NCBI GenBank assembly: GCA_018900835.1
Contig: JAHIFQ010000014.1
Location: 1 to 62,875, forward strand
Length of the DNA stretch: 62,875 nucleotides
DNA from: Patescibacteria group bacterium
GTDB lineage: Bacteria > Patescibacteriota > Minisyncoccia > Minisyncoccales > PEYH01
Direction: 5' to 3'
Shown here: positions 4,541 to 62,042 of the stretch, in pieces
Numbering within the stretch: the first letter of the stretch is position 1
Layout of the letters: each line of letters begins with the position of its first letter
Notes under the pieces: generated by a model
What the model saw: only the letters and a program-made list of their open reading frames with translations
Database searches by the model: none
What the model was told of the DNA's origin: nothing
Program-made: the position numbers and the translations under genes

Positions 4541-7500
4541 ATGTGCGGAATAATAGGTTATGTTGGTAAAAAGCAGGCCCTTCCTATAGTTATGGAAGGA
4601 CTTAAGCGTCTTGAATATAGGGGCTATGATTCAAGCGGCGTTGTGGTTTTGAATAAGGGGGCCGAAGTCGTAAAGACAAAAGGAAGAATAGAAGATTTAA
4701 GAGAGAAGTTAGGGGACATTCAAGGCACTACAGCCATAGGACATTGCCTTCCTCCAGATACTCTAATTCAATTGGCTGATGGCAGTATTAAAGAAATCGG
4801 CAAAATTAAATCAGGAGAAAAGGTTTTATGTTTAAATACTAAGAGTTTAAAATTTGTTAACGGCAGAGCAAAGGTTTTTAAACACAAATCACCCACTTCT
4901 CTGCTTGCAGTAAAAACAAACTCAACTTTATTTAAGGCCACCAAGGAACACAAGATGCTAGTTTTCAAGGATGGCCATATAACATATAAGAGAGCGAAAG
5001 AGCTTTCTATGGGTGACATTCTAATCGTTCCCAAGAGGATAGATATTAAGGGAGGAAAGCTAACTTTTCCTGAAGCTGATACGAGGAGATATTATGAGCT
5101 CCCTGATAGCTCAGTTGAAAAAATGAAGCTTGTCTTGAAACAGAGGAAGTTATCAAAAATAGAGGCAGCGAGAGCCATTGGCATAAGCGCCTCCTATTTA
5201 GGCCACATATTGAAGAACGATCGTAAATGTAGAGAGGATCAGCTTAAAAAGTTATCTAAATTTTTTCAAGGCTATGGATTAGAAAAAGAAGCGATGCCAA
5301 TAGATACATCTTGGGGTAAATTTATCACCCTACCCAGAAGGAGTACGCCTGAGTTAATGCAGATTATTGGTTATTTCCTTGGGGACGGCACGGCTCAGCC
5401 CAAGAGTATCAGATTCAAGGATATGGATAAGGATTTATTGGAGGAATATAAAAAATTAATTCATCAGGTTTTCAATGTTGAGGGTCGCATAGTCTCTCAA
5501 AATGATACCAGAGCTTATTTACTAGAGGTCAACAGCACTTATCTTTCTAGATGGTTTAAAGAGAATGTGGTTCTCGGCAAGCAGAAGCTATTAGAAGAGA
5601 TGGGCAGAGCTTCTTTGCGCGAGATAGCAGCTTTTTTAAGAGGATTATTCGACGCAGAAGGTTGTGTGGCCACACAAAGCAAGCAGATAGCTCTTAAATT
5701 GGCAGATGAGAGAATAGCAAGAACAATCCAATTTTTATTGCTTAGATTTGGAATCTTGAGTTCTTTTTCTAAAGCAGGGAGGAGAATTAAGGGCTGGCTG
5801 CCTGTTTCTGGGGTAGTGTTCAGCGATTGGCAAAGCGTTAAGAAATTTCAGGAGTCTGTTGGGTTTTCTTCAGCCCTAAAATCAGCCAAACTTAGTAAAC
5901 TTTTAAAAACCTTATCCAAGAATCGCTTGAATTTCAGTTTTAAGTTTTTCCCTTTTACTAAAAAAGAAATTTATAAAAGATACAATGCATTTCTTAAGGA
6001 TAGTAGTGTAGAAATTAAGAAGAAATTAAGCCCAAGAGATGAGAGTTTTCTTACTCGCAGAATCTTAGAAGAGATTGTTGATTACCAATCTAAAGAGAAG
6101 GGCAACGATTTAATTAAAGATATTAGTAGATTCTTGAATTGTGATGTTGTGTTCCAGCCAATAAAACAGATTAAAAAAGTACGATCAACTTTTGAATTTC
6201 TCTATGACTTAGAGGTTTCTCCTCATTCTAATTTTATTGCTAATGGAGTTGTATCTCATAATTCAAGATGGGCAACGCATGGAAAGCCCTCTGACCTTAA
6301 CGCTCATCCTCTTTGGGATTGCAAAAAAGAAATCTTTGTTGTTCACAATGGAATAATTGAAAATTATAAGCAACTTAAAGAAGAATTAATAGCGCGAGGG
6401 CATAAATTTATTTCAGAAACAGATACAGAAGTTTTGCCTCATTTGATTGAAGAAAATTATAAGGGCAACCCTTCGGCAAGCTCAGGGCAAGCTTTAGAAG
6501 AGGCCGTCCGCTTGTCTCTCCAGAAAATTGTTGGCGCTTATGCTATTGCTGTGGTTTGTGAAAAAGAACCAAATAAAATTGTCTTTGCCAGGCAATCCAG
6601 CCCGTTGTTAGTTGCTTTAGGCGAAGGAGAGAATTTTATTGCCTCTGATGCTACGGCAATATTGGGTTATGCTAAACAAGTTATCTATTTAGACGATGGA
6701 GAAATGGGAGTAATCACTCCTGATGATTTTCAAGTTTTTACTTTAGAGAATAAAGAAGTCAAGAAAAGTTTTCATAAGATAGAATGGGACATAGAGCAGG
6801 CAGAAAAATCCGGTTATCCTCATTTTATGTTAAAAGAGATTTTTGAAGGTCCAGAAACAATTGAAAATGCTATAAGAGGAAGAATGATATTAAAAGATGG
6901 AATGGCTAAGCTTGGGGGATTAGAACCAGTTATAGACAAGCTAAAAAAAATAGACAGAATTGTTATTGTTGCCATGGGAACCGCTTTTTTAGCTGGAAAA
7001 GTGGGCGAATATATGCTTGAAGAATATGCTGGCATTCCCGTAGAAGTAGAAAACGCTTCAGAATTTAGATATAAAAAATCAATTATTAATAAGAATGATG
7101 CGGTCTTAGCAATTTCCCAGTCAGGAGAAACCGCTGATACTCTTTTCGCAGTAAAAGAAGCCAAAAGAAAGGGCGCCCTTACTTTAGGCATTGTTAATGT
7201 GGTTGGCTCAAGCATTGCCAGAGAAGTTGAGGCAGGTGTTTACAATCACGCTGGTCCGGAAATAGCAGTCGCCTCTACTAAGGCCTTTATTTCCCAACTA
7301 ACTATCTTAGCTCTTTTAACTGTGTTTTTAGGTAGGCAAAGGAATATGTCTTTAGTAACAGGCAAGAGAATTTTAGAAGAATTAGAGAAATTACCAGAAC
7401 TTTGTAAAAAGATTTTAGAGAAAAAAGAAGACATTAAGAGCTTAGCAGAGAAATATTTTGCTTATAAAAATTTTCTTTATCTTGGTAGAAAATACAACTA

Positions 7501-7891
7501 TCCAGTTGCTTGTGAAGGCGCTTTAAAACTAAAAGAAATTTCATATATCCATGCTGAAGGCATGCCAGCAGGAGAAATAAAACATGGGCCCATTGCTATG
7601 ATTGATAAGGACTTCCCTAGTTTTGTCGTTGCTTTAAAAGATAGTGTTTATGAAAAGAATGTTTCTAATATTGAGGAAATAAAAGCCAGAGACGGAAAGG
7701 TTATCGCTTTAGCAACAGAAGGAGATGATTTATCAACTGATGATGTTGTATTCGTGCCTAAAACCTTAGAAATGCTTAGCCCAATTTTATCAGTTATTCC
7801 TCTTCAACTTTTTGCTTATTATATTTCGGTAAAAAAGGGCTTAGATGTGGACAAGCCAAGAAACTTGGCGAAATCAGTCGTGGTAGAGTAA
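4541..7891 (+). CDS. glmS: Glutamine--fructose-6-phosphate aminotransferase, interrupted by an in-frame intein
   Basis: N-terminal MCGIIGY nucleophile. The conserved GH|(T/S)RWATHG is split by 506 aa. SIS-domain motif SQSGETADT and C-terminal KSVVVE are present. Confidence 0.95.
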   Translation: MCGIIGYVGKKQALPIVMEGLKRLEYRGYDSSGVVVLNKGAEVVKTKGRIEDLREKLGDIQGTTAIGHCLPPDTLIQLADGSIKEIGKIKSGEKVLCLNTKSLKFVNGRAKVFKHKSPTSLLAVKTNSTLFKATKEHKMLVFKDGHITYKRAKELSMGDILIVPKRIDIKGGKLTFPEADTRRYYELPDSSVEKMKLVLKQRKLSKIEAARAIGISASYLGHILKNDRKCREDQLKKLSKFFQGYGLEKEAMPIDTSWGKFITLPRRSTPELMQIIGYFLGDGTAQPKSIRFKDMDKDLLEEYKKLIHQVFNVEGRIVSQNDTRAYLLEVNSTYLSRWFKENVVLGKQKLLEEMGRASLREIAAFLRGLFDAEGCVATQSKQIALKLADERIARTIQFLLLRFGILSSFSKAGRRIKGWLPVSGVVFSDWQSVKKFQESVGFSSALKSAKLSKLLKTLSKNRLNFSFKFFPFTKKEIYKRYNAFLKDSSVEIKKKLSPRDESFLTRRILEEIVDYQSKEKGNDLIKDISRFLNCDVVFQPIKQIKKVRSTFEFLYDLEVSPHSNFIANGVVSHNSRWATHGKPSDLNAHPLWDCKKEIFVVHNGIIENYKQLKEELIARGHKFISETDTEVLPHLIEENYKGNPSASSGQALEEAVRLSLQKIVGAYAIAVVCEKEPNKIVFARQSSPLLVALGEGENFIASDATAILGYAKQVIYLDDGEMGVITPDDFQVFTLENKEVKKSFHKIEWDIEQAEKSGYPHFMLKEIFEGPETIENAIRGRMILKDGMAKLGGLEPVIDKLKKIDRIVIVAMGTAFLAGKVGEYMLEEYAGIPVEVENASEFRYKKSIINKNDAVLAISQSGETADTLFAVKEAKRKGALTLGIVNVVGSSIAREVEAGVYNHAGPEIAVASTKAFISQLTILALLTVFLGRQRNMSLVTGKRILEELEKLPELCKKILEKKEDIKSLAEKYFAYKNFLYLGRKYNYPVACEGALKLKEISYIHAEGMPAGEIKHGPIAMIDKDFPSFVVALKDSVYEKNVSNIEEIKARDGKVIALATEGDDLSTDDVVFVPKTLEMLSPILSVIPLQLFAYYISVKKGLDVDKPRNLAKSVVVE
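4745..6262 (+). mobile_element. Large intein (506 aa) with a LAGLIDADG homing-endonuclease domain and an HTH segment
   Basis: Starts at Cys (CLPPDTLIQLADGS) and has block B TKEH. LAGLIDADG motifs IIGYFLGDGTA and FLRGLFDAEGC. XRE-like LSKIEAARAIGISASYLGHILKN. Ends VVSHN followed by +1 Ser (SRWATHG). Confidence 0.9.
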
Positions 7892-27549: not shown

Positions 27550-27641
27550 ATTACGAGACTTGGTCTTGTAAACTTCGTAAAACGCCGGAACCCACGCCAG
27601 TATTGAGGATTCTCCCAACCCGCCCGGGGCGGGTAATTTTT
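27550..27641 (+). repeat. Diverged copy (a) of the dual-hairpin REP-like element, lacking the terminal DnaA box
   Basis: attacgagac-ttg-gtcttgtaa ... ccagtattgaggattctcccaa-cccgcccggggcggg-taattttt. Hairpin 1 keeps its pairing with a changed sequence. Confidence 0.75.
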
Positions 27642-27648
27642 GTAATAC

Positions 27649-36997: not shown

Positions 36998-37108
36998 ATT
37001 ACGAGGCCGGGCCTCGTAATTTTCGTAAAACGCCGGAACCCATACCAGTATTGAGGAATCTCACAACCCGCCCGGGGCGGGTAATTTTTGGGGGAGAGTT
37101 ATCCACAG
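36998..37108 (+). repeat. Dual-hairpin REP-like element copy (b), ends in TTATCCACA
   Basis: attacgaggccgggcctcgtaat...cccgcccggggcgggtaatttttgggggagagttatccacag. Confidence 0.9.
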
Positions 37109-42274: not shown

Positions 42275-42385
42275 ATTACGAGGCCGGGCCTCGTAATTTT
42301 CGTGAAATGGCGGAAGCCATACCAGTATTGAGGATTCTCACAACCCGCCCAGGGCGGGTAATTTTTGGGGGAAAGTTATCCACAG
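42275..42385 (+). repeat. Dual-hairpin REP-like element copy (c), ends in TTATCCACA
   Basis: 111 nt, 110/111 identical to copy (e). Lies 46 nt upstream of the Y1 transposase gene. Confidence 0.92.
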
Positions 42386-42430: not shown

Positions 42431-43141
42431 ATGCCGAGAAGAAAAACCGAATTAATTAATGGTGAATTTTACCATATTATAGAGCGAGGAAATGATAGGC
42501 GCAAAATTTTTTTAGATAATGAAGATCGCCTTCGTTTTGTTAATAGTTTATTGGTTTTTAACGACACAGCGCCATCGCCTTGGCAATCTCGCGCTTTTTG
42601 GAAAAAACAGAAAGAATTGTTAAAAATGGACTATAAACCCAAAAATCCATTAGTCGAAATTCATGCGTTTGCTCTCATGGATAATCATTTTCATATCCTT
42701 GTCCGCCAGTTGACGGAAAATGGCATAACAAATTACACAAGAAAACTCGGCGGTTATGCGTATTATTTTAATAAAAAACACAAAAGAACAGGATCTCTTT
42801 TTGAGGGAAGATTCAGGGCTAAGCTTATTCAGACAGAAGTGCAATTAAGAAATAATTTTGTTTATATAAAAACGAATCCGGTTGAGATGGTGGAACCAGA
42901 ATGGAAATCTTGGAAAGTTGTAGATTCTAAACAGGCCACAGATTTTTTAGAAAAAGATTATCGCTGGTCAAGCTACTGGGATTATTTGGGAAAAAATAAT
43001 TTTTCATCTTTAGTTAAAAAAGATTTTTTCTTGAAATTGTTTGATGGAGAACAAAATATTCAGAAGGAAATAAATTCTTGGATATCATCTAAATCAAGTG
43101 TTTTTTCCAGAGGAATGGACAAAGTAGATTTCTTAGAATAA
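42431..43141 (+). CDS. rayT: Y1/HUH tyrosine transposase, IS200-like / REP-associated (RAYT-like)
   Basis: 236 aa. HUH motif DNHFHILV and catalytic-Tyr context NNFVYIKTNPVE. Flanked on both sides by the 111-nt element. Confidence 0.8.
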   Translation: MPRRKTELINGEFYHIIERGNDRRKIFLDNEDRLRFVNSLLVFNDTAPSPWQSRAFWKKQKELLKMDYKPKNPLVEIHAFALMDNHFHILVRQLTENGITNYTRKLGGYAYYFNKKHKRTGSLFEGRFRAKLIQTEVQLRNNFVYIKTNPVEMVEPEWKSWKVVDSKQATDFLEKDYRWSSYWDYLGKNNFSSLVKKDFFLKLFDGEQNIQKEINSWISSKSSVFSRGMDKVDFLE

Positions 43142-43219: not shown

Positions 43220-43330
43220 ATTACGAGGCCGGGCCTCGTAATTTTCGTGAAATGGCGGAAGTCACGCCAGTATTGAGGATTCTCACAACCCGCCCTGGGC
43301 GGGTAATTTTTGGGGGAAAGTTATCCACAG
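43220..43330 (+). repeat. Dual-hairpin REP-like element copy (d), ends in TTATCCACA
   Basis: 111 nt, 108/111 identical to copy (e). Lies 78 nt downstream of the transposase stop. Confidence 0.92.
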
Positions 43331-43382
43331 ATGTTTTGATGTTTTTATTTGGTTTAATCCATAAAATGCTTTACAATTTTTT

Positions 43383-43448
43383 AATATCCTTCTTTAATAT
43401 CCTTCTTTAATATCTTTTTTTAATATCCTTCTTTAATATCCTTATTTT
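43383..43448 (+). repeat. Five tandem AT-rich 13-mers (aatatccttcttt)
   Basis: Read directly. Ends 10 nt before the ATG at 43459. Confidence 0.9.
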
Positions 43449-44067: not shown

Positions 44068-44085
44068 TAAATTTTGAGGGAGGAT

Positions 44086-47000
44086 ATGAAAAAAATATAT
44101 TTCTCATTAATTTTTTTAATTTTATTATTAGGAAGTTTTTTATTTAGACCATTATCTATATTTGCGATTGATAATAAAGAATTGACGCAAGAGGAATTAG
44201 ATTCATATATTAAATTAAGCGACACAGACAGAAGAGACATATTGAATACCTTGCCGCAGGTCTTTACTGAAGAATGGATGGACTCTATTGTCCGCGTTGC
44301 GATACCAGAGAAAGAGGCCATAAGTCTTATTATAAGACAAGCGGTCAGGGGGCACATGAGGGATTATTTATTAATTGAGGGACCAAGGGATGTTGGAATA
44401 GAAATTGTAAAATTAGGGTTTAAAATCGGGCAAATGTTTTTGACGAAAAATATTAGTATTAGTGATTTAATCAGCGAATTAGAGAAACTAACAATTAAAG
44501 AATCAGTAAATTATTTGAGCCAATGGCTTAAAGAAAAAGAAATCAAAATAGCAACAGGAAATCTGGATTTTTCCTATGATAATTTTCAAAACAAAAAAGA
44601 AAAACATCAATTTCAATATATTATTCTGTATTCTCCAGAAACCGATGATACTGGGGAAATGGTGATAAAGATTTTTTCTTCTGAACAAATGAGTGCGCCT
44701 GGCTCTTTTGGATCTTTTGCTGGTGGATGGGGAACCGCTTGGAATTATACTAATGAATATGCGCAGGGCAAGAAAATTGCCCCTTTTATTTTAACAATAC
44801 GCGGAGAAATGGAGAGAGCGCGCGTTGGATACTGGCAAAGCGAAATTACTCATAATTATTCTTGGAAATATCAGCCCGAAATTGAACTTGAGTTTCCTCG
44901 CACTGTTCCGTATTTTGATTTTCGCGAAAAAGGATTTTTTGAAAAGCTCGGAGACCAAATCAAAGAATTTTTTGGAAGAATAGGCGACCTTTTCTCTGGG
45001 GCTTCGTTGACAGGAGTTCCTGATATAGAAAAGAATCAAGATGGGACAATAGATTTGTCCGCGGACAGCGCATTAGGTAAATTTATTGCCAATATACTGG
45101 AACAATTTCGCGCTTTCAGGTCTCTTCTTGGGCAAGCTCAGCTTGATGCTTTAGAAAATCAGGTTCAAGACACAATGACAGAGGATGATTTATTAGCGCT
45201 TTTGGAAAAAATTGAATCTTTACAAGCGCAATTGGCTGCAATGGGAGAGAAAATTAATCTTTTACAGGCCGGAGTGGGAACATCTTCGGACACGACAGAG
45301 CTTAATCCCGCGCAAAACCAGCAAACCAAACAAAATATTTTGATAAATGAGGTTTGCGCTGGCATCAACAATTCTCAAAACGAATTTATTGAAATTTATA
45401 ACCCGAATAATACGCCAATTGATATAAGCGATGATAGTTTTCAACTTCAATTAGTAAGTTCAAGCGACAATGTGACAAAGAAAAAGATTACCTGGACCAA
45501 GAATATTATTCCGGCAAAAGGATATTTTCTCCTGATAGGCGGGGAATTGATAATTAATAATGAGAAAATTCAGGGAGATGCAGTGTTCAGTAGTCAATTG
45601 ACGAGTGTGAGTGGAATTATTCTTTCAGACAAAGAGGGGAATATTTTGGATAAAGTAAGCTGGGGAAGTCCAGAAAAATCACCGCCACAGTCCGCTGTAG
45701 AAAAGCGGGGGAAAATATTACAAAAAGGACTTGAGACCAATAATAGCTTAGAGCGTTCTAACTACATTGACACTAATAATAATTCTGCAGATTTTTCGCT
45801 CAATGAATCGCCTTCACCAGCCAATTCTTTGGGAGAGGAATTTATTTACACCATTCAAGGACAAGGTGGCAATGGCAATGGCGATGATGGCGATGGTGAT
45901 GGCGAAGAAGAGGATGGTCAGTCCGAAAACTCTGACCAACAGCAGAATATTTCTGGCGGAGGCAGCTCTAATAGGCCTATTTGTTCACAGGATAGATTGG
46001 ATAGCCCTGCCAATTCCCCGATTATCATTAACGAGATTGCGTGGATGGGAAGTGAGGCAGGATACATTAATGAATGGATTGAGTTGAAAAATATTTCCGA
46101 TTCTGCAATAAATTTAGAAAATTGGCAACTTTTGGATAAAGCAGAGAACATCCGTATTACATTCAGCGCGAATCACGCCATCCCTGCCCACGGATTTTAT
46201 CTTTTGGAGCGAAGCGACGATGAAGTTGTGCCGAGCGTAAGCGCTGATGTCATTTATACTGGCGCTTTAGCTAATAGCAACGAGAGTTTGCGTCTATTTA
46301 ACAGTAATTGCGATTTAATTGACGAGGTAATGGCAAGCCCGGATTGGTCTGCTGGAGATAACGACACAAAACAGACAATGGAAAGAGGAGATGACCTGTT
46401 GTGGCATGATTATAGCGGACAAGGAAGCGACGGGATTATGGGAACGCCGAGGGCGGAAAATAGCGAAATTATTATTAACAACCAAGGTGAAAATAATGAA
46501 GATGAAGAGGACGATGGAGATGATGGAGATGATGAAGATGAAGAGGACGATGGAGATGATGAAGATGATGAAGATGATGGAAGCGGTGATGATTCAGTTT
46601 CCGCTATAGGATTGGTTATTTCTGAAGTTAGAGCTGCTGGTATTGAAGAATTTATTGAGATCTATAATCCGCTTGAGCAAGAGATTTCTCTTGTTGGGTT
46701 TTATTTCAGTTATTTTTCCGCTGGCCGCGATTGGAATAATCCATTTTTAAACAAAGAGTTTCCGACAAGCACACCTGTGATTGGCGCAAAAGAATATTTT
46801 CTAATAGGATTGGGCGATTATTTAGAAGAAGAATCGGATTGGAAGCCGAATCAAACCAATTTAAGTAGCGACAATGGCGCTGTTGCTTTATTCTCTTGCG
46901 ACCCAAGTCAGGCAACCACTACTCAAATGGCAATAGATTGCAAAATTGACGCTGTTGGCTGGGGCGAACCGCTTGTTTTTGAAACACAGGCAGCAACGAG

Positions 47001-48807
47001 CTCAAGCGATAAAAGTTTGGCGCGGAAATTATCTCCAGACGAAAATGGTTATTTACGATATATAGATACTGATGATAATTATAATGATTTTGAAGAACAG
47101 GAATCTACTCCTAAACAGCAGAACCAATCTGCTTATTCTGATTTAGATAACGATGGCATAATAGATGAGTATGACCCTGTGACAGAAATTTCAAGTGATA
47201 TAATTCTTCCTGCAGGAGAGTATATATTCAAGGACTTGGTTATTATTCAAGGATTCGGCTTGTTCGCTGGTTCAGATATTTTATTGGAAGGGTTTAAGGG
47301 AGTTAAGATAACAGCAGACAATATTAATATTAATGAAGACGCTGGCATTTTTGCCGACAATAATGGCTATGCTTCAGACCAAGGACCTGGAGTAAGTATC
47401 GCAAGCCAGACAGGAGCAAGCCATGGAGGAGTTGGAGGAAGGAATGAAGGTGATCCGAAACTATTTATTTATGGAGATTTAGAATTTCCTATTGAACCAG
47501 GGTCTGGGGCTTTAGGCAATCCTGAAGTTCCGCGCTTAAGTCCGTATCGGCCAGGAGGAGCAGGCGGAGGAGCTATTGTTTTAGATGTTCAAGGAGAGTT
47601 GTTGAATAATGGTTTTATCTCGGCCAATGGAGAGGACGGACTCCCTCATGTTACAAGTTATGCTTCCACTGGCGCTGGAAGTGGCGGTTCTGTTTATATA
47701 ACAACAAGCGTCTTATCAGGGACAGGCATTGTTAGGGTAAATGGCGGCGGGTCTTCGCGTAGCTCCGGGGCTGGCGGAGGCGGAAGAATTGCGGTCTATT
47801 ATGATACGAATAATTTTGCTGGGAATATTCAAGCATTCGGCGGAGAGGATGCTAATAATATTCTTAATGGAGGTCCGGGAACTGTTTTTATGAGTCAGGG
47901 AGAAATAGGAAATTTGGTTATTGATAATAATGCACGAGAGGGAGTGACAGCTTTGAGTAATGATAGTTATGTTTTTGGCGATATAATTGTTAGTGGAGGC
48001 GCAAATTTTTATCTGCCTGACCAGTTGAGTTGCGCGAATTTTGATGTTCAAAACAGCGCTGTTTTAATAGCAATAGATAATGCAACAATAAATATTAGTA
48101 ATGCGTTTAATTTAAATCAATCTCAACTTATTGGCGAAAACCAAAAAATCGTGACTATTGAAGGTAATGAAATCACATTAGTAGAGAGTGAAATCTTGGC
48201 AAATGTTTTTGTTCAAACCAACTCTTTGACAATAGATAGCGGTTCTGCGATTTTATCCACAGGCCTTGGTTATGTTTTTGAAGAAGGCCCTGGAGCTGGG
48301 ATTAATGCTTATGGTGGGAGTTATGGTGGATTGGGAGGCAGAAATTATGAATCATCCGGATTTGGACAACCATATGGGATTGAGGAAATGCCAGATGATT
48401 TTGGTTCGGGCGGAGGAAATGGAAACGAAGTTAGAAAAGGAGAGAGTGGCGGCGGGAAAATTATTATAATTAGCGTAGGCGAAATTGTTATTGACGGTGC
48501 GATTTCATCTAACGGTAATAATGGTCTTCCGCATATTACGAGCTATCCAGCGAGCGGAGCTGGAAGCGGAGGAACTATTTATCTTTCTGCCAGCGTTGTT
48601 AATGGTGTGGGTACTGTGTCTGCGAATGGAGGGTCAGCGTCTTCAATCGGTGGTGGAGGCGGAGGAGGAAGAATTGCGATTTATGGAAATATAGGTGGTT
48701 TTACTGGAATTATTGAGGCGCTTGGAGGAAAGAATTCAACAAATGCGTATTACGACGGAGAGGATGGAACAGTATTTTTGGGTTCTGGCGATTTTGAACC
48801 GAATTAA
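44086..48807 (+). CDS. Giant secreted/surface protein with three lamin-tail domains, acidic linkers and a duplicated Gly-rich beta-helix-like C-terminus
   Basis: Start at the ATG after the GGGAGG SD. LTD signatures INEVCAG...NEFIEIYNP, INEIAWMG...NEWIELKN, ISEVRAAGIEEFIEIYNP. D/E/G linkers, a DLDNDGIIDEYDP Ca-binding-like motif, and two GAGSGG...GGGGRIA(V/I)Y modules. Confidence 0.8.
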   Translation: MKKIYFSLIFLILLLGSFLFRPLSIFAIDNKELTQEELDSYIKLSDTDRRDILNTLPQVFTEEWMDSIVRVAIPEKEAISLIIRQAVRGHMRDYLLIEGPRDVGIEIVKLGFKIGQMFLTKNISISDLISELEKLTIKESVNYLSQWLKEKEIKIATGNLDFSYDNFQNKKEKHQFQYIILYSPETDDTGEMVIKIFSSEQMSAPGSFGSFAGGWGTAWNYTNEYAQGKKIAPFILTIRGEMERARVGYWQSEITHNYSWKYQPEIELEFPRTVPYFDFREKGFFEKLGDQIKEFFGRIGDLFSGASLTGVPDIEKNQDGTIDLSADSALGKFIANILEQFRAFRSLLGQAQLDALENQVQDTMTEDDLLALLEKIESLQAQLAAMGEKINLLQAGVGTSSDTTELNPAQNQQTKQNILINEVCAGINNSQNEFIEIYNPNNTPIDISDDSFQLQLVSSSDNVTKKKITWTKNIIPAKGYFLLIGGELIINNEKIQGDAVFSSQLTSVSGIILSDKEGNILDKVSWGSPEKSPPQSAVEKRGKILQKGLETNNSLERSNYIDTNNNSADFSLNESPSPANSLGEEFIYTIQGQGGNGNGDDGDGDGEEEDGQSENSDQQQNISGGGSSNRPICSQDRLDSPANSPIIINEIAWMGSEAGYINEWIELKNISDSAINLENWQLLDKAENIRITFSANHAIPAHGFYLLERSDDEVVPSVSADVIYTGALANSNESLRLFNSNCDLIDEVMASPDWSAGDNDTKQTMERGDDLLWHDYSGQGSDGIMGTPRAENSEIIINNQGENNEDEEDDGDDGDDEDEEDDGDDEDDEDDGSGDDSVSAIGLVISEVRAAGIEEFIEIYNPLEQEISLVGFYFSYFSAGRDWNNPFLNKEFPTSTPVIGAKEYFLIGLGDYLEEESDWKPNQTNLSSDNGAVALFSCDPSQATTTQMAIDCKIDAVGWGEPLVFETQAATSSSDKSLARKLSPDENGYLRYIDTDDNYNDFEEQESTPKQQNQSAYSDLDNDGIIDEYDPVTEISSDIILPAGEYIFKDLVIIQGFGLFAGSDILLEGFKGVKITADNININEDAGIFADNNGYASDQGPGVSIASQTGASHGGVGGRNEGDPKLFIYGDLEFPIEPGSGALGNPEVPRLSPYRPGGAGGGAIVLDVQGELLNNGFISANGEDGLPHVTSYASTGAGSGGSVYITTSVLSGTGIVRVNGGGSSRSSGAGGGGRIAVYYDTNNFAGNIQAFGGEDANNILNGGPGTVFMSQGEIGNLVIDNNAREGVTALSNDSYVFGDIIVSGGANFYLPDQLSCANFDVQNSAVLIAIDNATINISNAFNLNQSQLIGENQKIVTIEGNEITLVESEILANVFVQTNSLTIDSGSAILSTGLGYVFEEGPGAGINAYGGSYGGLGGRNYESSGFGQPYGIEEMPDDFGSGGGNGNEVRKGESGGGKIIIISVGEIVIDGAISSNGNNGLPHITSYPASGAGSGGTIYLSASVVNGVGTVSANGGSASSIGGGGGGGRIAIYGNIGGFTGIIEALGGKNSTNAYYDGEDGTVFLGSGDFEPN

Positions 48808-48838: not shown

Positions 48839-48949
48839 ATTACGAGGCCGGGCCTCGTAATTTTCGTGAAATGGCGGAAGCCATACCAGTATTGAGGATT
48901 CTCACAACCCGCCCTGGGCGGGTAATTTTTGGGGGAAAGTTATCCACAG
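48839..48949 (+). repeat. Dual-hairpin REP-like element copy (e), ends in TTATCCACA
   Basis: 111 nt, 31 nt after the giant gene stop. Confidence 0.92.
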
Positions 48950-50199: not shown

Positions 50200-50337
50200 C
50201 CCGCCCGGGGCGGGTAATTTTTATCTGTAACGAGGCCGGGCCTCGTAATTTTCGTGAAATGGCGGAAGCCATACCAGTATTGAGGATTCTCACAACCCGC
50301 CCTGGGCGGGTAATTTTTGGGGAAAAGTTATCCACAG
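50200..50337 (+). repeat. Solo hairpin-2 unit plus dual-hairpin REP-like element copy (f), ends in TTATCCACA
   Basis: cccgcccggggcgggtaattttt abuts the gdh stop. A full copy follows (taacgaggccgggcctcgtaat...gttatccacag). Confidence 0.88.
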
Positions 50338-51694: not shown

Positions 51695-51723
51695 ACTTAT
51701 TGAATACCTTTTATTTTTTAACT

Positions 51724-52350
51724 ATGTTCTACAAGGAGGACACTATAAGATTAACAGTTGCTGTGTATCAGGTGACTGGGATTTTTCCTGAAAATGAGCC
51801 CTTAATAGCTCAAATCAGGCAAAAAGCTAATAATGTTTTAGCTGATTTTATCTGTCTGCGGATGAATCCGGGCAACAAAAAAAATATCAGCAAAGGAATT
51901 GAGGTGCTTTTTGCCTATTTTTCCATAGCTGAAAAGCAGAACTGGATTGATAGCAAGAATTTTTTGGTTTTAAGGCGAGAATATAGCAAAATATTGGATT
52001 TTATAAGGAGTTTGCCTGAAAATCCTGTGAAAATAGCAAGAAAAGAAGTAAAAATAATTGAGAAAACGAGTTATCCACAGGTAACTGTGGATAAGAGAGT
52101 GGATAAACAGGTGGATAAGAAACAGGAAAACAGAAATGTTAGCAGGGCTTCGTCTAATCCTTCTGTAAGGCAAAAACAGGTTTTAGAATTGATTAAAACT
52201 AAGAATCAGCTTTCTTTGTCAGAAATCAAGAGTATGTTTTCTTCCTTAAGTTCCAGAACATTGCGTCGGGACTTGAGTTCATTGGTTGATAAGGGGGCAA
52301 TAGACAGAATCAGGGAGGGCAGAGATGATGTTTTATATGTTTTAAAATGA
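51724..52350 (+). CDS. Four-helix-bundle (23S-IVS-protein-like) N-domain fused to a DeoR-like winged HTH
   Basis: C-terminal LSLSEIKSMFSSLSSRTLRRDLSSLVDKGAI. The linker VDKRVDKQVDKK is encoded by a DnaA-box array. The start could be 51700 (TTG). Confidence 0.55.
   Translation: MFYKEDTIRLTVAVYQVTGIFPENEPLIAQIRQKANNVLADFICLRMNPGNKKNISKGIEVLFAYFSIAEKQNWIDSKNFLVLRREYSKILDFIRSLPENPVKIARKEVKIIEKTSYPQVTVDKRVDKQVDKKQENRNVSRASSNPSVRQKQVLELIKTKNQLSLSEIKSMFSSLSSRTLRRDLSSLVDKGAIDRIREGRDDVLYVLK
52071..52118. promoter_or_regulatory. Array of four DnaA-box-like 9-mers inside a CDS, including a perfect inverted pair
   Basis: TTATCCACAG-GTAA-CTGTGGATAA (52071-52094), then GTGGATAA at 52099 and 52111 with 12-nt spacing. 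Confidence 0.6.
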
Positions 52351-52387
52351 AATTGGATTGCGGACAGATGTCGGACATAAAATATAG

Positions 52388-52418
52388 TTGTCCACAATGT
52401 GTCCACAAGTTATCCACA
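52388..52418 (+). promoter_or_regulatory. Three same-orientation DnaA-box-like sites at 11-nt spacing upstream of the sigma factor gene
   Basis: TTGTCCACA (52388), GTGTCCACA (52399), TTATCCACA (52410). Ends 34 nt before the ATG at 52452. Confidence 0.55.
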
Positions 52419-52451
52419 TGTCCAGAAAATTATCCGGGCATTATTGTTTAA

Positions 52452-52955
52452 ATGATAATGGATAAAAAGCAGAAAAAATTTAGCAAGATATACGATAGCT
52501 ATGTAGGGAGCATCTATCGTTTCATTTCTATTAAAGTCAATTCTCAGGAAATTGCCGAGGATTTGACTTCTGAAGTGTTTTTAAAAACATGGAAGAGTTT
52601 TCAACAGCAAAATAAAATCAAAAATCCAAGGGCATATCTTTATACCACTGCCCGGCATATAGTCATTGATTTTTACAGGACCAATAAAGAAGATAGGACA
52701 ATATCAATTGAAGATGTTAGAGAGATAGAGGATATAGCCATTCCAATAGAAGCGCAGGAAAGCCATGATGCTACCATGGAAATCGTAAAACAAGGGCTCA
52801 ACGCGCTTAAAGAGGATTATCAAAATGTCGTTATTTGGCGGTATGTGGATGGATTGTCTATTAATGAAATCGCTAAAATACTTGGAAAATCCAATGGAGC
52901 GACAAGAGTATTGATTCATAGGGCAATGGAACAGCTAAAAGAAAGAGTTCAGTAA
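52452..52955 (+). CDS. ECF-type RNA polymerase sigma-70 family factor
   Basis: 167 aa. Region 2 (PRAYLYTTARHIVIDFYR) and region 4 HTH (LSINEIAKILGKSNGATRVLIHRAM). Confidence 0.85.
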   Translation: MIMDKKQKKFSKIYDSYVGSIYRFISIKVNSQEIAEDLTSEVFLKTWKSFQQQNKIKNPRAYLYTTARHIVIDFYRTNKEDRTISIEDVREIEDIAIPIEAQESHDATMEIVKQGLNALKEDYQNVVIWRYVDGLSINEIAKILGKSNGATRVLIHRAMEQLKERVQ

Positions 52956-53071: not shown

Positions 53072-53182
53072 ATTACGAGGCCGGGCCTCGTAATTTTCGT
53101 AAAACCCCGGAAGCCACGCTAGCATTGAGGATTCTCACAACCCGCCCTGGGCGGGTAATTTTTAGGGGAAAGTTATCCACAG
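53072..53182 (+). repeat. Dual-hairpin REP-like element copy (g), ends in TTATCCACA
   Basis: 111 nt. The central segment is diverged and both hairpins are intact. Confidence 0.9.
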
Positions 53183-53286
53183 GGTAAAAGCGTAAAATGT
53201 AAAGCGAAAAATGTAAAAGAAAAAACAAAAATATAAGGGAGAAAGCGTAAAGCGTAAAGCGAAAAGCGAAAAATGTGAAAGAAAAG
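53183..53286 (+). repeat. A-rich heptanucleotide satellite (gtaaaag/gcgtaaa/gcgaaaa units)
   Basis: Read directly. Abuts REP copy (g). Confidence 0.8.
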
Positions 53287-53408
53287 ACAATTTTAATTAA
53301 TTTTACTGTAACAATTGGGGTGTTTGTTCGTCTACTCTATAATAGAGAGTCAAAATCTGAAATTGCAGACCGATACTGAAAAAACGATATCCGATATATA
53401 TCGTTCAG

Positions 53409-53505
53409 AAATCCAAAACACAAAACACAAAAGCCAAAACACAAAAGCTAAAACACAAAAGCCAAAAGCTAAAAGCTAAAACACAAAACAAGAAAAGCGA
53501 AAAAG
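53409..53505 (+). repeat. A-rich heptanucleotide satellite (aaaacac/aaaagcc/aaaagct units)
   Basis: About 13 units, of the same family as the in-frame tracts in leuS and topA. Confidence 0.85.
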
Positions 53506-59023: not shown

Positions 59024-61240
59024 ATGTTTAAAAAGAATTTTTTCAGTTTTCAAAATCTGCTCAATTTTAAGATTAATTCTCTTGCGCTGTCATTGGTTTT
59101 TCTTTTGCCTTTGTTTTTCCTTCCTTTCACTGCTTCACCGCTTTTTCTGAATAAGCAGCTGTTCTTATCAATAGCTGTTTTCTTTTTGTTTATTTTCTGG
59201 GCAGTGAAAGTGATAAGCTTTGGAAAATTTACTTTGGATTTTGGGAAAATTAGCAAAGCAATGATTCTGTTTTTGGTTGTGATTGGCATATCCACTATAT
59301 TTTCCATTTCCAGAAGCCAGAGTTTCGCAGTCGCAGACACGCCCGATACTTTCCTGAACATACTGCTATGCGGTTTAGTTTATTTCCTGTCAGCTAATTT
59401 ATTTAGCAAAAGAGAAGCCATTGAAAAGAGGGGCTCAAAAGATTCAAAAGAATCCAAACTCCCAGCCCGAAAATTCGTTTTCGGATTTTTGGCAAGCGCA
59501 TTTGTTTTGAGCATTATTTTCCTGCTCCAAGCAGTGATAAGAAAAGCAATCTTTCCATTATTCCTTACCAAGAATTTTATTTTCAACACTATTGGAAGCA
59601 CAGAAGCGTTAGGTATATTCATTGGTTGCGCATTTGTATTATTAATGTCTTTGTTTGGGAATAAAGTGATTGCGGTCAAAGAGAAGGCGGACATAAAATC
59701 AAAAATCATCTTCGGATTGTCCGCTATCACAGGAGTCATATTTTTCGCATCCATTGTTTTAATCAATTATTGGCTGATATGGCTTGGTGTTATCTTGGGC
59801 ATTATTTTTGTCCTTGCCCAGATGAGCAAGAATATGGGCCCAATTTTAACCCAGAAGGAAATAAGGCAATTTATTTTGCCACTTTTGATTCTGGCTATTT
59901 CCTTGATATTCGTTTTTGTAAGGATTCCTACTGACAAGATTTTCAGCTATTCTCCGGAAATAGGGCTTACTTTCAAATCAACTGTTCAAATAGGAACTGA
60001 TACAATGAAAATCTCTGTGAAAAATTTGATTATCGGTTCGGGACCAGCTTCGTTTCCTTATCAATTTGACCTTTTTAAGCCATTAGCAATAAATCTTGGG
60101 GCTTTCTGGCAGACACGGTTTAATCAGGGCTTTTCTGTTTTAACAACTATGTTATCCACAGTCGGTATTTTGGGAGTTTTGTCAGTCCTGTTATTGATAG
60201 TAACGGCTTTATGGCAGGGGATTAGGCCGTTATTTAAGACAAAAAATGATGATTCTGTGGAGGCAAAATTATCTTCTGTTATTTTCACTGCCTGCCTATA
60301 TTTGTTTTTTACTTGGTTTTTCTATCCAGCCAACATTACATTGCTATTTCTGGCTTTTTTAATGCTTGGTTTGTTTGTTGGGCTTGAAAAGAAAGGGAAT
60401 GTTAAAGAGATTTTATTCACCCAATCGCCTCAAAAAGCGTTTGGAATTATGATGTTAGCAGTAGTGGTTATGGCTGGCGCGGGCATTGGGGTATATAAGG
60501 TAAGCCAGAGATATGCGGGCGCTGTAATTTTTGCTGACGGGGTTAATTTTATCAATTCAGAAGAGCCGAATTTAGAAAATGGAATTAAGGCGATTGTTTC
60601 TGCTTCCAATTTAGACCAAAACAAAGATGATTATTTGAGAAATCTGTCCCAGGCATTTGCGCTTCAGCTTGACGAATTAGTCGGCAATCAAGAATTGAGC
60701 CAAGAGGACAAACAAAAGCTTTTTCAGCAATATATTTCAAACGGAGAGAGCATATTAGCAGAGGCAGTGCGCATTAACCCGAAAAACAGTGAAAACTGGC
60801 TCCAGCAGGGGAGTTTTTATCAGTCACTTGAAGGGTTTGGAGTGCAGGGCGCAGGGCAATTAGCGTTTGCGAGTTTCCAAAAAGCGTATGAGTTAGCTCC
60901 TCGGGACCCGCAATTCCCATTTGTTTTGGGGAATATGTATCTTGTGTCAGCAAAAACAAATTCAGCGCAGATAAAAGAACTGGAAAATGCGGAAGAAAAA
61001 GACCAAACGCAGATTGATAAACTAAAAGAAGCGCAAGAGTTGTTATTTTCGCAAACAGAAGAATATTTATTGAAAGCAATTGAACTTAAAAGAAATCTTG
61101 TGCCGGCGTTTTACTCGTTGGGACAATTTTATGAATTCAAGGGAGACCAGAATCTTGCTTTGCAGGCATATTCTATTATCTTGCAGCTTGTACCCGAATA
61201 TCAGGATGTGAAAGCAAGAATAGAAGCCCTCACAAAATAA
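59024..61240 (+). CDS. Polytopic O-antigen-ligase/Wzy_C-like membrane protein with C-terminal TPR repeats
   Basis: 738 aa with at least 10 hydrophobic helices. TPR-like AFASFQKAYELAPRDPQ... and YSLGQFYEFKGDQNLALQAYSIILQLVPEY. Confidence 0.6.
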   Translation: MFKKNFFSFQNLLNFKINSLALSLVFLLPLFFLPFTASPLFLNKQLFLSIAVFFLFIFWAVKVISFGKFTLDFGKISKAMILFLVVIGISTIFSISRSQSFAVADTPDTFLNILLCGLVYFLSANLFSKREAIEKRGSKDSKESKLPARKFVFGFLASAFVLSIIFLLQAVIRKAIFPLFLTKNFIFNTIGSTEALGIFIGCAFVLLMSLFGNKVIAVKEKADIKSKIIFGLSAITGVIFFASIVLINYWLIWLGVILGIIFVLAQMSKNMGPILTQKEIRQFILPLLILAISLIFVFVRIPTDKIFSYSPEIGLTFKSTVQIGTDTMKISVKNLIIGSGPASFPYQFDLFKPLAINLGAFWQTRFNQGFSVLTTMLSTVGILGVLSVLLLIVTALWQGIRPLFKTKNDDSVEAKLSSVIFTACLYLFFTWFFYPANITLLFLAFLMLGLFVGLEKKGNVKEILFTQSPQKAFGIMMLAVVVMAGAGIGVYKVSQRYAGAVIFADGVNFINSEEPNLENGIKAIVSASNLDQNKDDYLRNLSQAFALQLDELVGNQELSQEDKQKLFQQYISNGESILAEAVRINPKNSENWLQQGSFYQSLEGFGVQGAGQLAFASFQKAYELAPRDPQFPFVLGNMYLVSAKTNSAQIKELENAEEKDQTQIDKLKEAQELLFSQTEEYLLKAIELKRNLVPAFYSLGQFYEFKGDQNLALQAYSIILQLVPEYQDVKARIEALTK

Positions 61241-61400
61241 AAAATAGTTGCGAAAAGTTTTCCACACCTCTTGACTTGTATTTATTTTTTTAAAGAGTGA
61301 TATAATTAAACTACTTTGAGATTTATAAATAAAAGTTTAATTTCAAGGTTCTGAGGAGCGAAGCGACGAAGGTTCTTATAATTAAACTACTTTAAAAAGA

Positions 61401-61586: not shown

Positions 61587-61591
61587 ATGTG

Positions 61592-61855
61592 ATGTATTAT
61601 GTTTATTTTTTAAAGAGTCGAAAAGATGGGCATAGCGTTTATGTCGGGTATACGAATAACCTTAGAAGAAGATTGCAAGAGCACAATATAGGAAGGGGAG
61701 GCAAATATACCAAAAACAAAGGACCATTTTCTTTGGTATATTATGAAGCATATAATTCTATGGAGGATGCTCAAAATAGAGAACAAGCGCTCAAGGTTCA
61801 TAAACGCGCTTATTCACAGTTGAAGAACAGAATCAAAGAAGGTCTTAAGAAGTAA
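61592..61855 (+). CDS. Small GIY-YIG nuclease-family protein (UPF0213-like)
   Basis: YVYFLKS...VYVGYTNNLRRRLQEHN GIY-YIG core. Confidence 0.8.
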   Translation: MYYVYFLKSRKDGHSVYVGYTNNLRRRLQEHNIGRGGKYTKNKGPFSLVYYEAYNSMEDAQNREQALKVHKRAYSQLKNRIKEGLKK

Positions 61856-61870
61856 AAAGAATAAAGGTCG

Positions 61871-62042
61871 GGATTTCTCCTTATTTCGTAGGGGATGAAA
61901 TCCCCCACCAATCCTATGCCTAACTTCGTTAGAATTTGCGCGAAGCGTAGCAAGGATATAGGAGGGGGGTAAAATCCCCCACCAATTCTATGCCTAACTT
62001 CGTTAGAATTTGCGCGAAGCGTAGCATAGAATTGGTGGGGGA
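61871..62042 (+). mobile_element. MITE-like 172-nt insertion flanked by 8-nt direct repeats
   Basis: AAAGGTCG at 61863-61870 and 62043-62050. Internal 55-nt duplication (61898-61952, 61972-62026). Perfect 19-bp inverted repeat 61975-61993 / 62024-62042. Confidence 0.5.

Follow-up and report, generated by a model that had tools for sequence, protein, structure and literature searches.

Does a dense group of DnaA-box words inside a bacterial regulator gene mark a site at which DnaA acts, or did the codons of the gene happen to make one? The question is raised by a 62,875-nt stretch of DNA from a Patescibacteria group bacterium (contig JAHIFQ010000014.1; hereafter the window), in which four boxes lie within 48 nt of the coding sequence (CDS) of a predicted regulator, at 52071-52118. 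On balance, we lean towards the view that this array is a lineage-specific by-product: an older stem-loop already contained a box written in codons, a single substitution perfected the palindrome, and slippage expanded the linker by 24 nt. The locus is neither a replication origin nor a conserved datA-like site. The argument uses the following features of the window.

51724..52350, plus strand: regulator gene, 208 amino acids from the ATG at 51724 (the database form); the open reading frame (ORF) opens with TTG at 51700
52071..52094, no strand: perfect palindrome, in the mRNA a 10-bp stem with a GUAA loop
52074..52091, plus strand: core stem TCCACAG / CTGTGGA, 7 bp with a 4-nt loop; of the palindrome, only this core pairs in all close orthologues
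52086..52094, minus strand: box TTATCCACA from the codons (T)-V-D-K, seen in codon-level views of the orthologues
52096..52119, plus strand: in-frame insertion R-V-D-K-Q-V-D-K, 24 nt or two 12-nt units, each with GTGGATAA, seen in the protein alignment, in DNA views and by Tandem Repeats Finder (TRF)

Inspection of positions 52071-52094 gives TTATCCACAG-GTAA-CTGTGGATAA, a perfect 10-4-10 palindrome that is at the same time a convergent pair of perfect DnaA-box words. The word TTATCCACA is matched at nine of nine positions twice in the array, at 52071 on the plus strand and at 52086 on the minus strand. GTGGATAA is seen again at 52099 and 52111 with a 12-nt period; on the minus strand, the corresponding boxes read TTATCCACT and TTATCCACC (52098 and 52110) and match at only eight of nine positions. 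TRF reports a period of 12 with 2.8 copies at 52087-52120. The total is four boxes in 48 nt, two perfect and two near-perfect, and clusters of the datA, DARS and DnaA-box cluster (DBC) type are recognized by at least three boxes in a short stretch away from the origin. Both the palindrome and the two further copies of GTGGATAA at 12-nt spacing had been pointed out in a preliminary description of this DNA, and both are present, the latter as 8/9 boxes. A 10-bp inverted repeat is not rare here: inverted repeats number 81 in the window when arms of 9 nt or more and gaps of up to 12 nt are counted.

The array is read in frame as S-Y-P-Q-V-T-V-D-K-R-V-D-K-Q-V-D-K-K within the plus-strand ORF (51700/51724..52350). 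The gene product is 100% identical to the database protein P0001 (208 amino acids), and the homologues carry Patescibacteria annotations. The sole Pfam match is a C-terminal HTH_DeoR domain (2.5e-7). The AlphaFold2 model, made from 25 homologues, has helices at residues 4-96, forming an N-domain of four helices, a disordered stretch at 103-136 (predicted local distance difference test, pLDDT, below 50) and a winged helix-turn-helix (wHTH) domain at 146-207. In Foldseek, the N-domain matches 2gsc and 2rld, four-helix bundles of the S23/23S-IVS family, and the C-domain matches wHTH domains that are MarR/ArsR-like, the domain type being MarR/ArsR/DeoR-like. The array codes for approximately residues 116-132. 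Since these fall within the disordered stretch, the array consists of linker codons, and the earlier proposal that the boxes encode a linker joining the four-helix bundle to the wHTH domain is borne out by the reading frame and the model.

The history of the array is best seen in the orthologues. Eight close homologues with 64-80% identity, representing approximately five independent lineages, were compared at the DNA level (loci of relatives are cited by number, such as L001). The multi-box array is present in none of them. In the protein alignment, the eight-residue insertion R-V-D-K-Q-V-D-K is unique to the window and absent from all seven orthologous lineages; its exact placement inside the repeat is ambiguous. 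The closest orthologue (L001/L016, 80% identical) has GTGGATAA only, L003/L017 have a single minus-strand box, L011-L015 and L066 have 8/9 words, and none of these loci has tandem units. The sole box word kept in every close orthologue is one minus-strand box-like 9-mer, encoded by V-D/E-K codons, that matches at least eight of nine positions. It reads TTATCCACA in the window and L003, TTATCCACC in L001, TTATCCGCA in L011, and TTTTCCACA in L013-L015 and L066. Its plus-strand partner ranges from 5/9 to 9/9, and the perfect copy in the window differs from the AAT CCA CAR of the relatives by a single A-to-T difference (Asn to Tyr).

E. coli datA and DARS and the DnaA-box clusters of B. subtilis are shared by related strains, are found within intergenic DNA or close to it, and have accessory sites such as those for IHF. 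The array resembles them in that several boxes occupy a short stretch away from the origin, and in principle it could titrate or load DnaA. Unlike them, it is intragenic, spans 48 nt, is built from codon repeats and occurs in no orthologue; cluster conservation of the datA/DARS/DBC type is lacking, as only one box-like word is found in the seven orthologous lineages. The preliminary description had compared the box density to that of datA and had named absence from orthologous genes as a sign of random linker expansion. The array is missing from all of them, and the extra boxes are an in-frame 24-nt expansion of the linker. A conserved function is unlikely because the array is absent from all relatives.

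This distribution can be explained in four steps. In a linker rich in Lys, Glu, Val and Asp, the V-D/E-K codons (GTG GAT AAR) encode the minus-strand box-like 9-mer, here as in the orthologues. The 9-mer is one arm, on the 3' side, of a 7-bp inverted repeat that is older than the array and is most simply taken as an mRNA stem-loop; its pairing survives via compensated and wobble changes. Judging from the orthologue states, the 5' arm would then have changed from AAT CCA CAR to TAT CCA CAG by an A-to-T substitution (Asn to Tyr), which would have completed both the perfect plus-strand box and the 10-bp stem. Finally, an in-frame 24-nt tandem expansion, presumably by replication slippage, has added two x-V-D-K units, each with GTGGATAA. 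The period is a multiple of three, the orthologues lack the insertion and the location is disordered, all as in an in-frame tandem expansion. The 12-nt period, the disordered linker and the relatives without the expansion are shared with slippage expansions in low-complexity linkers generally. Unlike in an ordinary linker expansion, the repeat unit carries a conserved DNA motif of the lineage, and protein binding may not be neutral.

The older inverted repeat has a 4-nt loop and is found at the homologous place in all eight sequences.

L013, L014 and L066: TCCACAA-AGGG-TTGTGGA
L015: TCCACAA-ACGG-TTGTGGA
L003: AUCCACGG-CAAG-UUGUGGAU, with two G.U pairs
L011: CCGCAG-CUGU-CUGCGG
L001: a weaker stem, interrupted

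RNAalifold gives a 7-bp consensus with 54 of 56 cells paired and 2 of 56 broken, and three pairs have changed on both sides. Of 500 shuffles, 5 reach the covariation score, which draws on no more than about five independent lineages; distant orthologues give no signal. Pairing reaches 81% of cells in register, compared with 37-43% when the partner is slid. In L011, an A-U pair has been replaced by G-C although this turned a Val into Ala and impaired the match to the box, which argues that pairing rather than the DnaA word is maintained. The G.U wobbles can pair on the sense strand but not on its complement, and a structure of the mRNA or of single-stranded plus-strand DNA is favoured because of this. 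The window segment 52050-52140 folds at -16.4 kcal/mol (z=-4.4). Taken together, the comparison suggests that the 7-bp inverted repeat is probably an mRNA stem-loop. Quasi-palindrome template switching can yield concerted arm changes without selection. The stem-loop resembles such mutations in that its two arms changed in concert, and template-switch 'correction' is an alternative source of these changes.

In the linkers of L013 (1560-1600), L014 and L066, I-V-E-K codons spell a second copy of the 3'-arm word, TTGTGGAAAA, which precedes the 5' arm by 18 nt. To judge from the complementarity, the 5' arm of these loci could pair either way, echoing the triplicated 3' arm of the window.

Other roles for the hairpin were considered and set aside. 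It is not a family-wide feature, as no hairpin was found at the homologous place in distant orthologues, which lack the segment and whose linkers fold no better than codon-resampled controls. A scan of the window at the Rfam gathering threshold returned tRNA only and no family matching the stem-loop. A terminator scan flagged the palindrome as a terminator-like hairpin on the minus strand, but an antisense terminator was rejected: the T-run arises as the complement of Lys/Glu codons, the minus strand has no gene downstream of it, and the wobbles fail on that strand. Scanning and inspection for an internal promoter or a frameshift signal at the hairpin gave nothing convincing.

The box word itself is strongly over-represented around the gene. 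The window contains 12 perfect copies of TTATCCACA against 0.58 expected, and none of 100 dinucleotide shuffles reaches 12. Six are borne by repetitive extragenic palindromic (REP) elements (37099, 42376, 43321, 48940, 50328 and 53173), one is intergenic (52410), and five lie in CDSs (20079 on the minus strand, 48253 and 52071 on the plus strand, 52086 on the minus strand and 60152 on the plus strand). The six REP-borne copies count as one event by descent. The five CDS copies compare with 1.19 expected (P=0.0055) when synonymous codons are resampled with proteins and codon usage kept. Two of the five are the palindrome itself, and the other three, against about 1.1 expected, are not significant. 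The preliminary description had given nine perfect 9-mers between 37 and 53 kb, with about one expected by chance; the over-representation holds, but the copies at 48253, 20079 and 60152 had been missed. The copy at 48253 is specific to the window. The copy at 60152-60160 is kept at the same position in L001:18180 and L003:16695, that is, in three genomes, and its codons read L-S-T in a membrane segment of a TPR protein.

Enrichment extends beyond the window. In a sample of 286 kb from 25 distant Patescibacteria loci, picked regardless of the motif, TTATCCACA has 22 occurrences where 2.1 are expected (10.3-fold) and ranks fifth among 9-mers, and the overlapping words GTGGATAAC, CTGTGGATA and AGTTATCCA are within the top 11. 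Half of the copies of TTATCCACA fall in the 15% of the sample that is intergenic. A typical copy has a terminator before it and a promoter of the TTGACA..17..TATAAT type 1-45 nt after it. In many Patescibacteria, including distant ones, AGTT(A/T)TCCACA(G/C) stands after a terminator hairpin and before a promoter, as in the following places.

Terminator-box-promoter arrangements: 61256-61320 of the window; L028:15588, L032:7190, L034:9816, L001:19730, L063:1700, L045:664 (minus strand) and others

The box was rejected as a -35 element, because its distance to TTGACA-like hexamers varies from 1 to approximately 45 nt and there is no fixed -10. In an intergenic region (L041:8740-8790) of a distant Parcubacteria metagenome-assembled genome (MAG), two extended boxes form a divergent inverted pair, TTGTGGATAACT-N11-AGTTATCCACAC, nested in a larger inverted repeat (ggccgaacc...ggttcggcc).

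The extended word GAGTTATCCACAG at 52068-52080 is identical over 13 nt to the context of box R4 of E. coli oriC, which was confirmed in 5,408 E. coli genomes, where it lies between mnmG and mioC. DnaA is the obvious candidate reader because the extended word equals the R4 context. The high-affinity boxes R4 and R1 of E. coli oriC are TTATCCACA in the GTTATCCACAG context. The plus-strand copy of the array has this flank context, whereas its minus-strand copies have other 5' flanks; the REP tails and the promoter-upstream copies also have AGTTATCCACAG. Unlike the E. coli oriC boxes, those of the array are putative sites that lie within a CDS, away from an origin and in a Patescibacteria MAG. The name DnaA box, as used from the outset, is reasonable in view of the 13-nt identity to R4 and of the extended word being a conserved intergenic motif of Patescibacteria. 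The protein that reads AGTTATCCACAG is most likely DnaA, to judge from the word. The array would probably be bound in vivo by this reader, and such binding would be young or incidental, not the reason for the sequence. A literature search found no paper linking TTATCCACA to Patescibacteria (the candidate phyla radiation, CPR) or to REP elements.

The REP elements, which carry half of the perfect boxes of the window, and the associated gene resembling a REP-associated tyrosine transposase (RAYT) are as follows.

27550..27642, plus strand: REP copy without a tail
36998..37108, plus strand: REP copy ending in ...GAGTTATCCACAG, box at 37099
42275..42385, plus strand: REP copy with tail box at 42376, directly upstream of the RAYT-like gene
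42431..43141, plus strand: RAYT-like Y1/HUH transposase gene with HFH and YIKTNP motifs
43220..43330, plus strand: REP copy with tail box at 43321, directly downstream of the RAYT-like gene
48839..48949, plus strand: REP copy with tail box at 48940
50230..50337, plus strand: REP copy with tail box at 50328
53072..53182, plus strand: REP copy with tail box at 53173

The REP is an intergenic element of approximately 110 nt with seven copies in the window, all on the plus strand. It consists of a terminator-like hairpin with a T-run, approximately 40 nt, a second hairpin with a T-run, and the end GGGGRAAAG-TT(A/T)TCCACAG(G). The hairpins are ATTACGAGGCC.GGCCTCGTAAT and ACCCGCCC.GGGCGGGT, each with a T-run behind it, and the tail is GGGGRAAAGTTATCCACAG(G). 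In relatives, the hairpin stems differ by species and the tail AAGTTWTCCACAGG is kept or becomes TTTTCCACA; AGTT(A/T)TCCACAG is the REP end there as well, and a few copies (L007, L008) are tailless. The transposase gene scores 23.2 bits with Pfam Y1_Tnp (cut-off 23) and E=5.7e-8 with NCBIfam REP_Tyr_transpos, which is below the 80-bit cut-off of that model. Its flanking REPs are in direct orientation, and the arrangement is syntenic in L001. The system is of the REP/RAYT type, because a multi-copy palindromic unit occurs with a Y1/HUH transposase-like gene flanked by copies. The likeness lies in the multi-copy intergenic two-hairpin unit beside such a gene. Unlike in REP/RAYT systems, the copies here are direct and in gene sense, and the hairpins resemble intrinsic terminators. 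The most conserved part is the 3' tail, which equals a DnaA box; to our knowledge, such a tail has not been described for REPs. Directly behind REP tails and before the next genes, short tandem or interspersed repeats occur at 43377-43447 and 53187-53491, with 13-nt units TTTAATATCCTTC in four to five copies and units of the AAAGCGTAAA/AAAACACAAAAGC type.

The remaining perfect box near the array, at 52410, belongs to a different kind of repeat. It lies between the regulator gene and a gene for an extracytoplasmic function (ECF) sigma factor.

52351..52451, plus strand: conserved intergenic array before the ECF sigma gene, with GGACA twice (52362, 52373), TTGTCCACA (52388), TGTCCACA (52400), TTATCCACA (52410), GTCCAGA (52420) and TATCCGGGCATT (52431)
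52458..52955, plus strand: ECF-type sigma-70 gene; the ORF opens at 52452, and orthologue alignment favours the ATG at 52458

The first three plus-strand repeats are approximately 11 nt apart. Across nine orthologues, down to 45% protein identity, the intergenic array has 64 invariant columns, and the consensus of its last repeats is TTAT(C/T)CACA, GTCCAGA and T(G/A)TCCGG. In the distant family members that were examined, the homologous intergenic regions (L001-L042 being the loci compared) have analogous arrays, with repeats in both orientations and lineage-specific cores (TAGGACAT/ATGTCCTA, TGTCACA, TGTCGCA or GTGGACAT), the core here being TGTCCACA. The sigma factor is recognized by Pfam Sigma70_r2/r4 and by NCBIfam sigma70-ECF (98 bits). 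Its gene is syntenic with the regulator in L001, L003, L011-L015 and L066, the loci whose neighbours were examined, and sigma-like N-termini stand behind the intergenic region in most distant loci. The order in close relatives is kept: hypothetical protein, regulator, ECF sigma factor, a 241-aa protein and a protein of approximately 1430 aa. The intergenic array reads best as the operator or promoter array of a module made up of regulator and sigma factor, rather than as a set of DnaA boxes. This module, in which the array stands between the two genes, appears to be conserved and is apparently undescribed. The box at 52410 had been counted together with the in-gene cluster: a perfect TTATCCACA is indeed there, but as a member of the TGTCC-type repeat array before the sigma gene.

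Several observations weigh against the by-product reading. The plus-strand copy matches the extended motif of the lineage, AGTTATCCACAGG, exactly. The three GTGGATAA units are identical over 8 nt, two synonymous sites in each included, and their 4-nt spacers have diverged (GAGA, ACAG and GAAA). Identical cores with differing spacers hint at constraint on the word itself, at small numbers and P~0.06 by our own rough estimate. L001 has the variant TTATCCACC both within the gene and as the third intergenic repeat, and one factor could read both the gene and the intergenic sites (n=1). As for the older stem-loop, the individual hairpins are not stronger than codon-resampled linkers in most lineages (P=0.04-0.4), and the covariation is built on only about five independent lineages. 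Some of these points would be accommodated by a young functional DnaA-box cluster, in which DnaA or another reader of AGTTATCCACAG oligomerises on the convergent pair and the two 12-nt-spaced boxes. Such a cluster might be a titration site or a roadblock that tunes read-through into the ECF sigma gene 330 nt downstream. It would fit the four boxes in 48 nt, two of them perfect with flanks equal to E. coli R4, the identical cores, the L001 variant, the neighbouring conserved repeat array with its perfect box, and a word that is clearly functional elsewhere in the lineage. We nevertheless consider it rather unlikely: no orthologue conserves the array, L011 and L001 have retained pairing but not the match to the box, the codons impose the 12-nt spacing, and the CDS excess beyond the regulator is not significant. 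A chromosomal origin, or part of one, has been effectively refuted. The dense boxes, four in the gene and at least three box-like repeats in the next 370 nt, are what had suggested an origin-like density. The locus is not an origin because GC skew shows no sustained change of sign, the genes run in one direction and dnaA is absent. Skew is positive to either side of the array and in nearly every 4-kb bin, with one bin dipping to -0.018 at 16-20 kb, and the cumulative curve is essentially monotonic. Between 21 and 62 kb, every gene is on the plus strand; the boxes are within a CDS, neither dnaA nor dnaN is near the array, the window contains no dnaA or DnaA signature, and syntenic relatives lack the array.

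Selection could instead have acted on RNA. An RNA element would have its 5' arm, UUAUCCAC, pair with any of the three GUGGAUAA copies, for processing, stability or ribosome pausing or as a switch among alternative pairings, and the likeness to DnaA boxes would be irrelevant. The compensated pairs, the G.U wobbles that work on the sense strand only, the local fold (z=-4.4) and the second TTGTGGAAAA copy in L013, L014 and L066 are in its favour. It is set back by the lack of an Rfam match and of a hairpin here in distant orthologues, by stems that are no stronger than codon-resampled controls in most lineages, by the few independent lineages and by template switching, which mimics covariation without selection. 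We also know of no role for a mid-ORF hairpin at a regulator linker, which counts against this explanation, and we hold it to be slightly less probable than a young DnaA-box cluster. An internal operator for the wHTH dimer of the gene itself, acting in autoregulation, would explain the symmetry of the palindrome. The word TCCACA also occurs in the downstream intergenic repeats of the clade, the third of which is TTATCCACA. This operator is very improbable. The palindrome lacks the family-wide GGACA/TGTCC core, and so do the regulator coding sequences of all orthologues that were examined, which argues against an operator here. In addition, the arms of L011 and L001 have left TCCACA while the intergenic repeats stayed TGTCCACA, and the wobble pairs point to a single-strand structure.

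A broader idea is that, in this branch of Patescibacteria, the R4-type box AGTT(A/T)TCCACAG is a genome-wide, REP-multiplied regulatory word placed behind terminators and shortly before sigma-70-like promoters, and that the in-gene array is a newborn high-density DnaA site which, with the neighbouring operator array, couples DnaA or replication status to the ECF sigma regulon. This is speculative, and we attach to it a low probability, similar to that of the RNA element.

The dnaA gene and oriC of the lineage were sought in relatives. No DnaA signature was found in approximately 0.5 Mb of their loci in REP- and protein-anchored scans, which comprised 5 loci from a metagenome scan, 24 from a hairpin pattern and 27 from the protein-anchored scan. 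The 24 hairpin-pattern loci come from the two closest GTDB genomes, JAHITK01 and CAYMBW01; exact REP patterns had no match in GTDB genomes. Box-cluster matches in L010 and L054 are ordinary coding or promoter DNA, and a scan for tandem GTTATCCACA pairs gave matches in other phyla and no Patescibacteria title among the matches listed.

Three further features of the window are separate from these subjects. On the plus strand at 4541-7891, a GlmS-like gene (GATase and SIS domains) is split by an intein with LAGLIDADG homing-endonuclease and HTH_3 domains. At 46488-46586 (plus strand), a 9-nt periodic GAT/GAA/GAG repeat encodes an Asp/Glu-rich run in a 1577-aa ORF (44074-48807), whose orthologues in L001 and L003 have LTD domains. 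At 61891-62038, downstream of a GIY-YIG-like small ORF (61589-61855), two tandem 74-nt units with 86% identity each open with a GGGGATGAAATCCCC hairpin and have no Rfam match. The segment 61854-61919, which includes the first 30 nt or so of unit 1, is 98% identical to L001, compared with approximately 83-87% in the surrounding coding DNA.

The array carries a caution: a few codons (Y-P-Q and V-D-K), a small prior hairpin and one slippage event can make a striking cluster of perfect boxes, and orthologue comparison exposes such codon-made clusters fast. As a lead, the REP-borne, promoter-upstream DnaA-box-like word across Patescibacteria is more interesting than the in-gene array. This 12-mer, similar to E. 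coli R4, is among the most enriched intergenic words of diverse Patescibacteria and is carried by REPs in the window. If the broader idea is true, DnaA would act globally in these minimal genomes, as a factor for transcription or titration whose sites are spread by mobile repeats. If DnaA reads the word, reduced genomes may use off-origin DnaA boxes on a scale not described before, and the in-gene array would show, as a natural experiment, how such a site is born.

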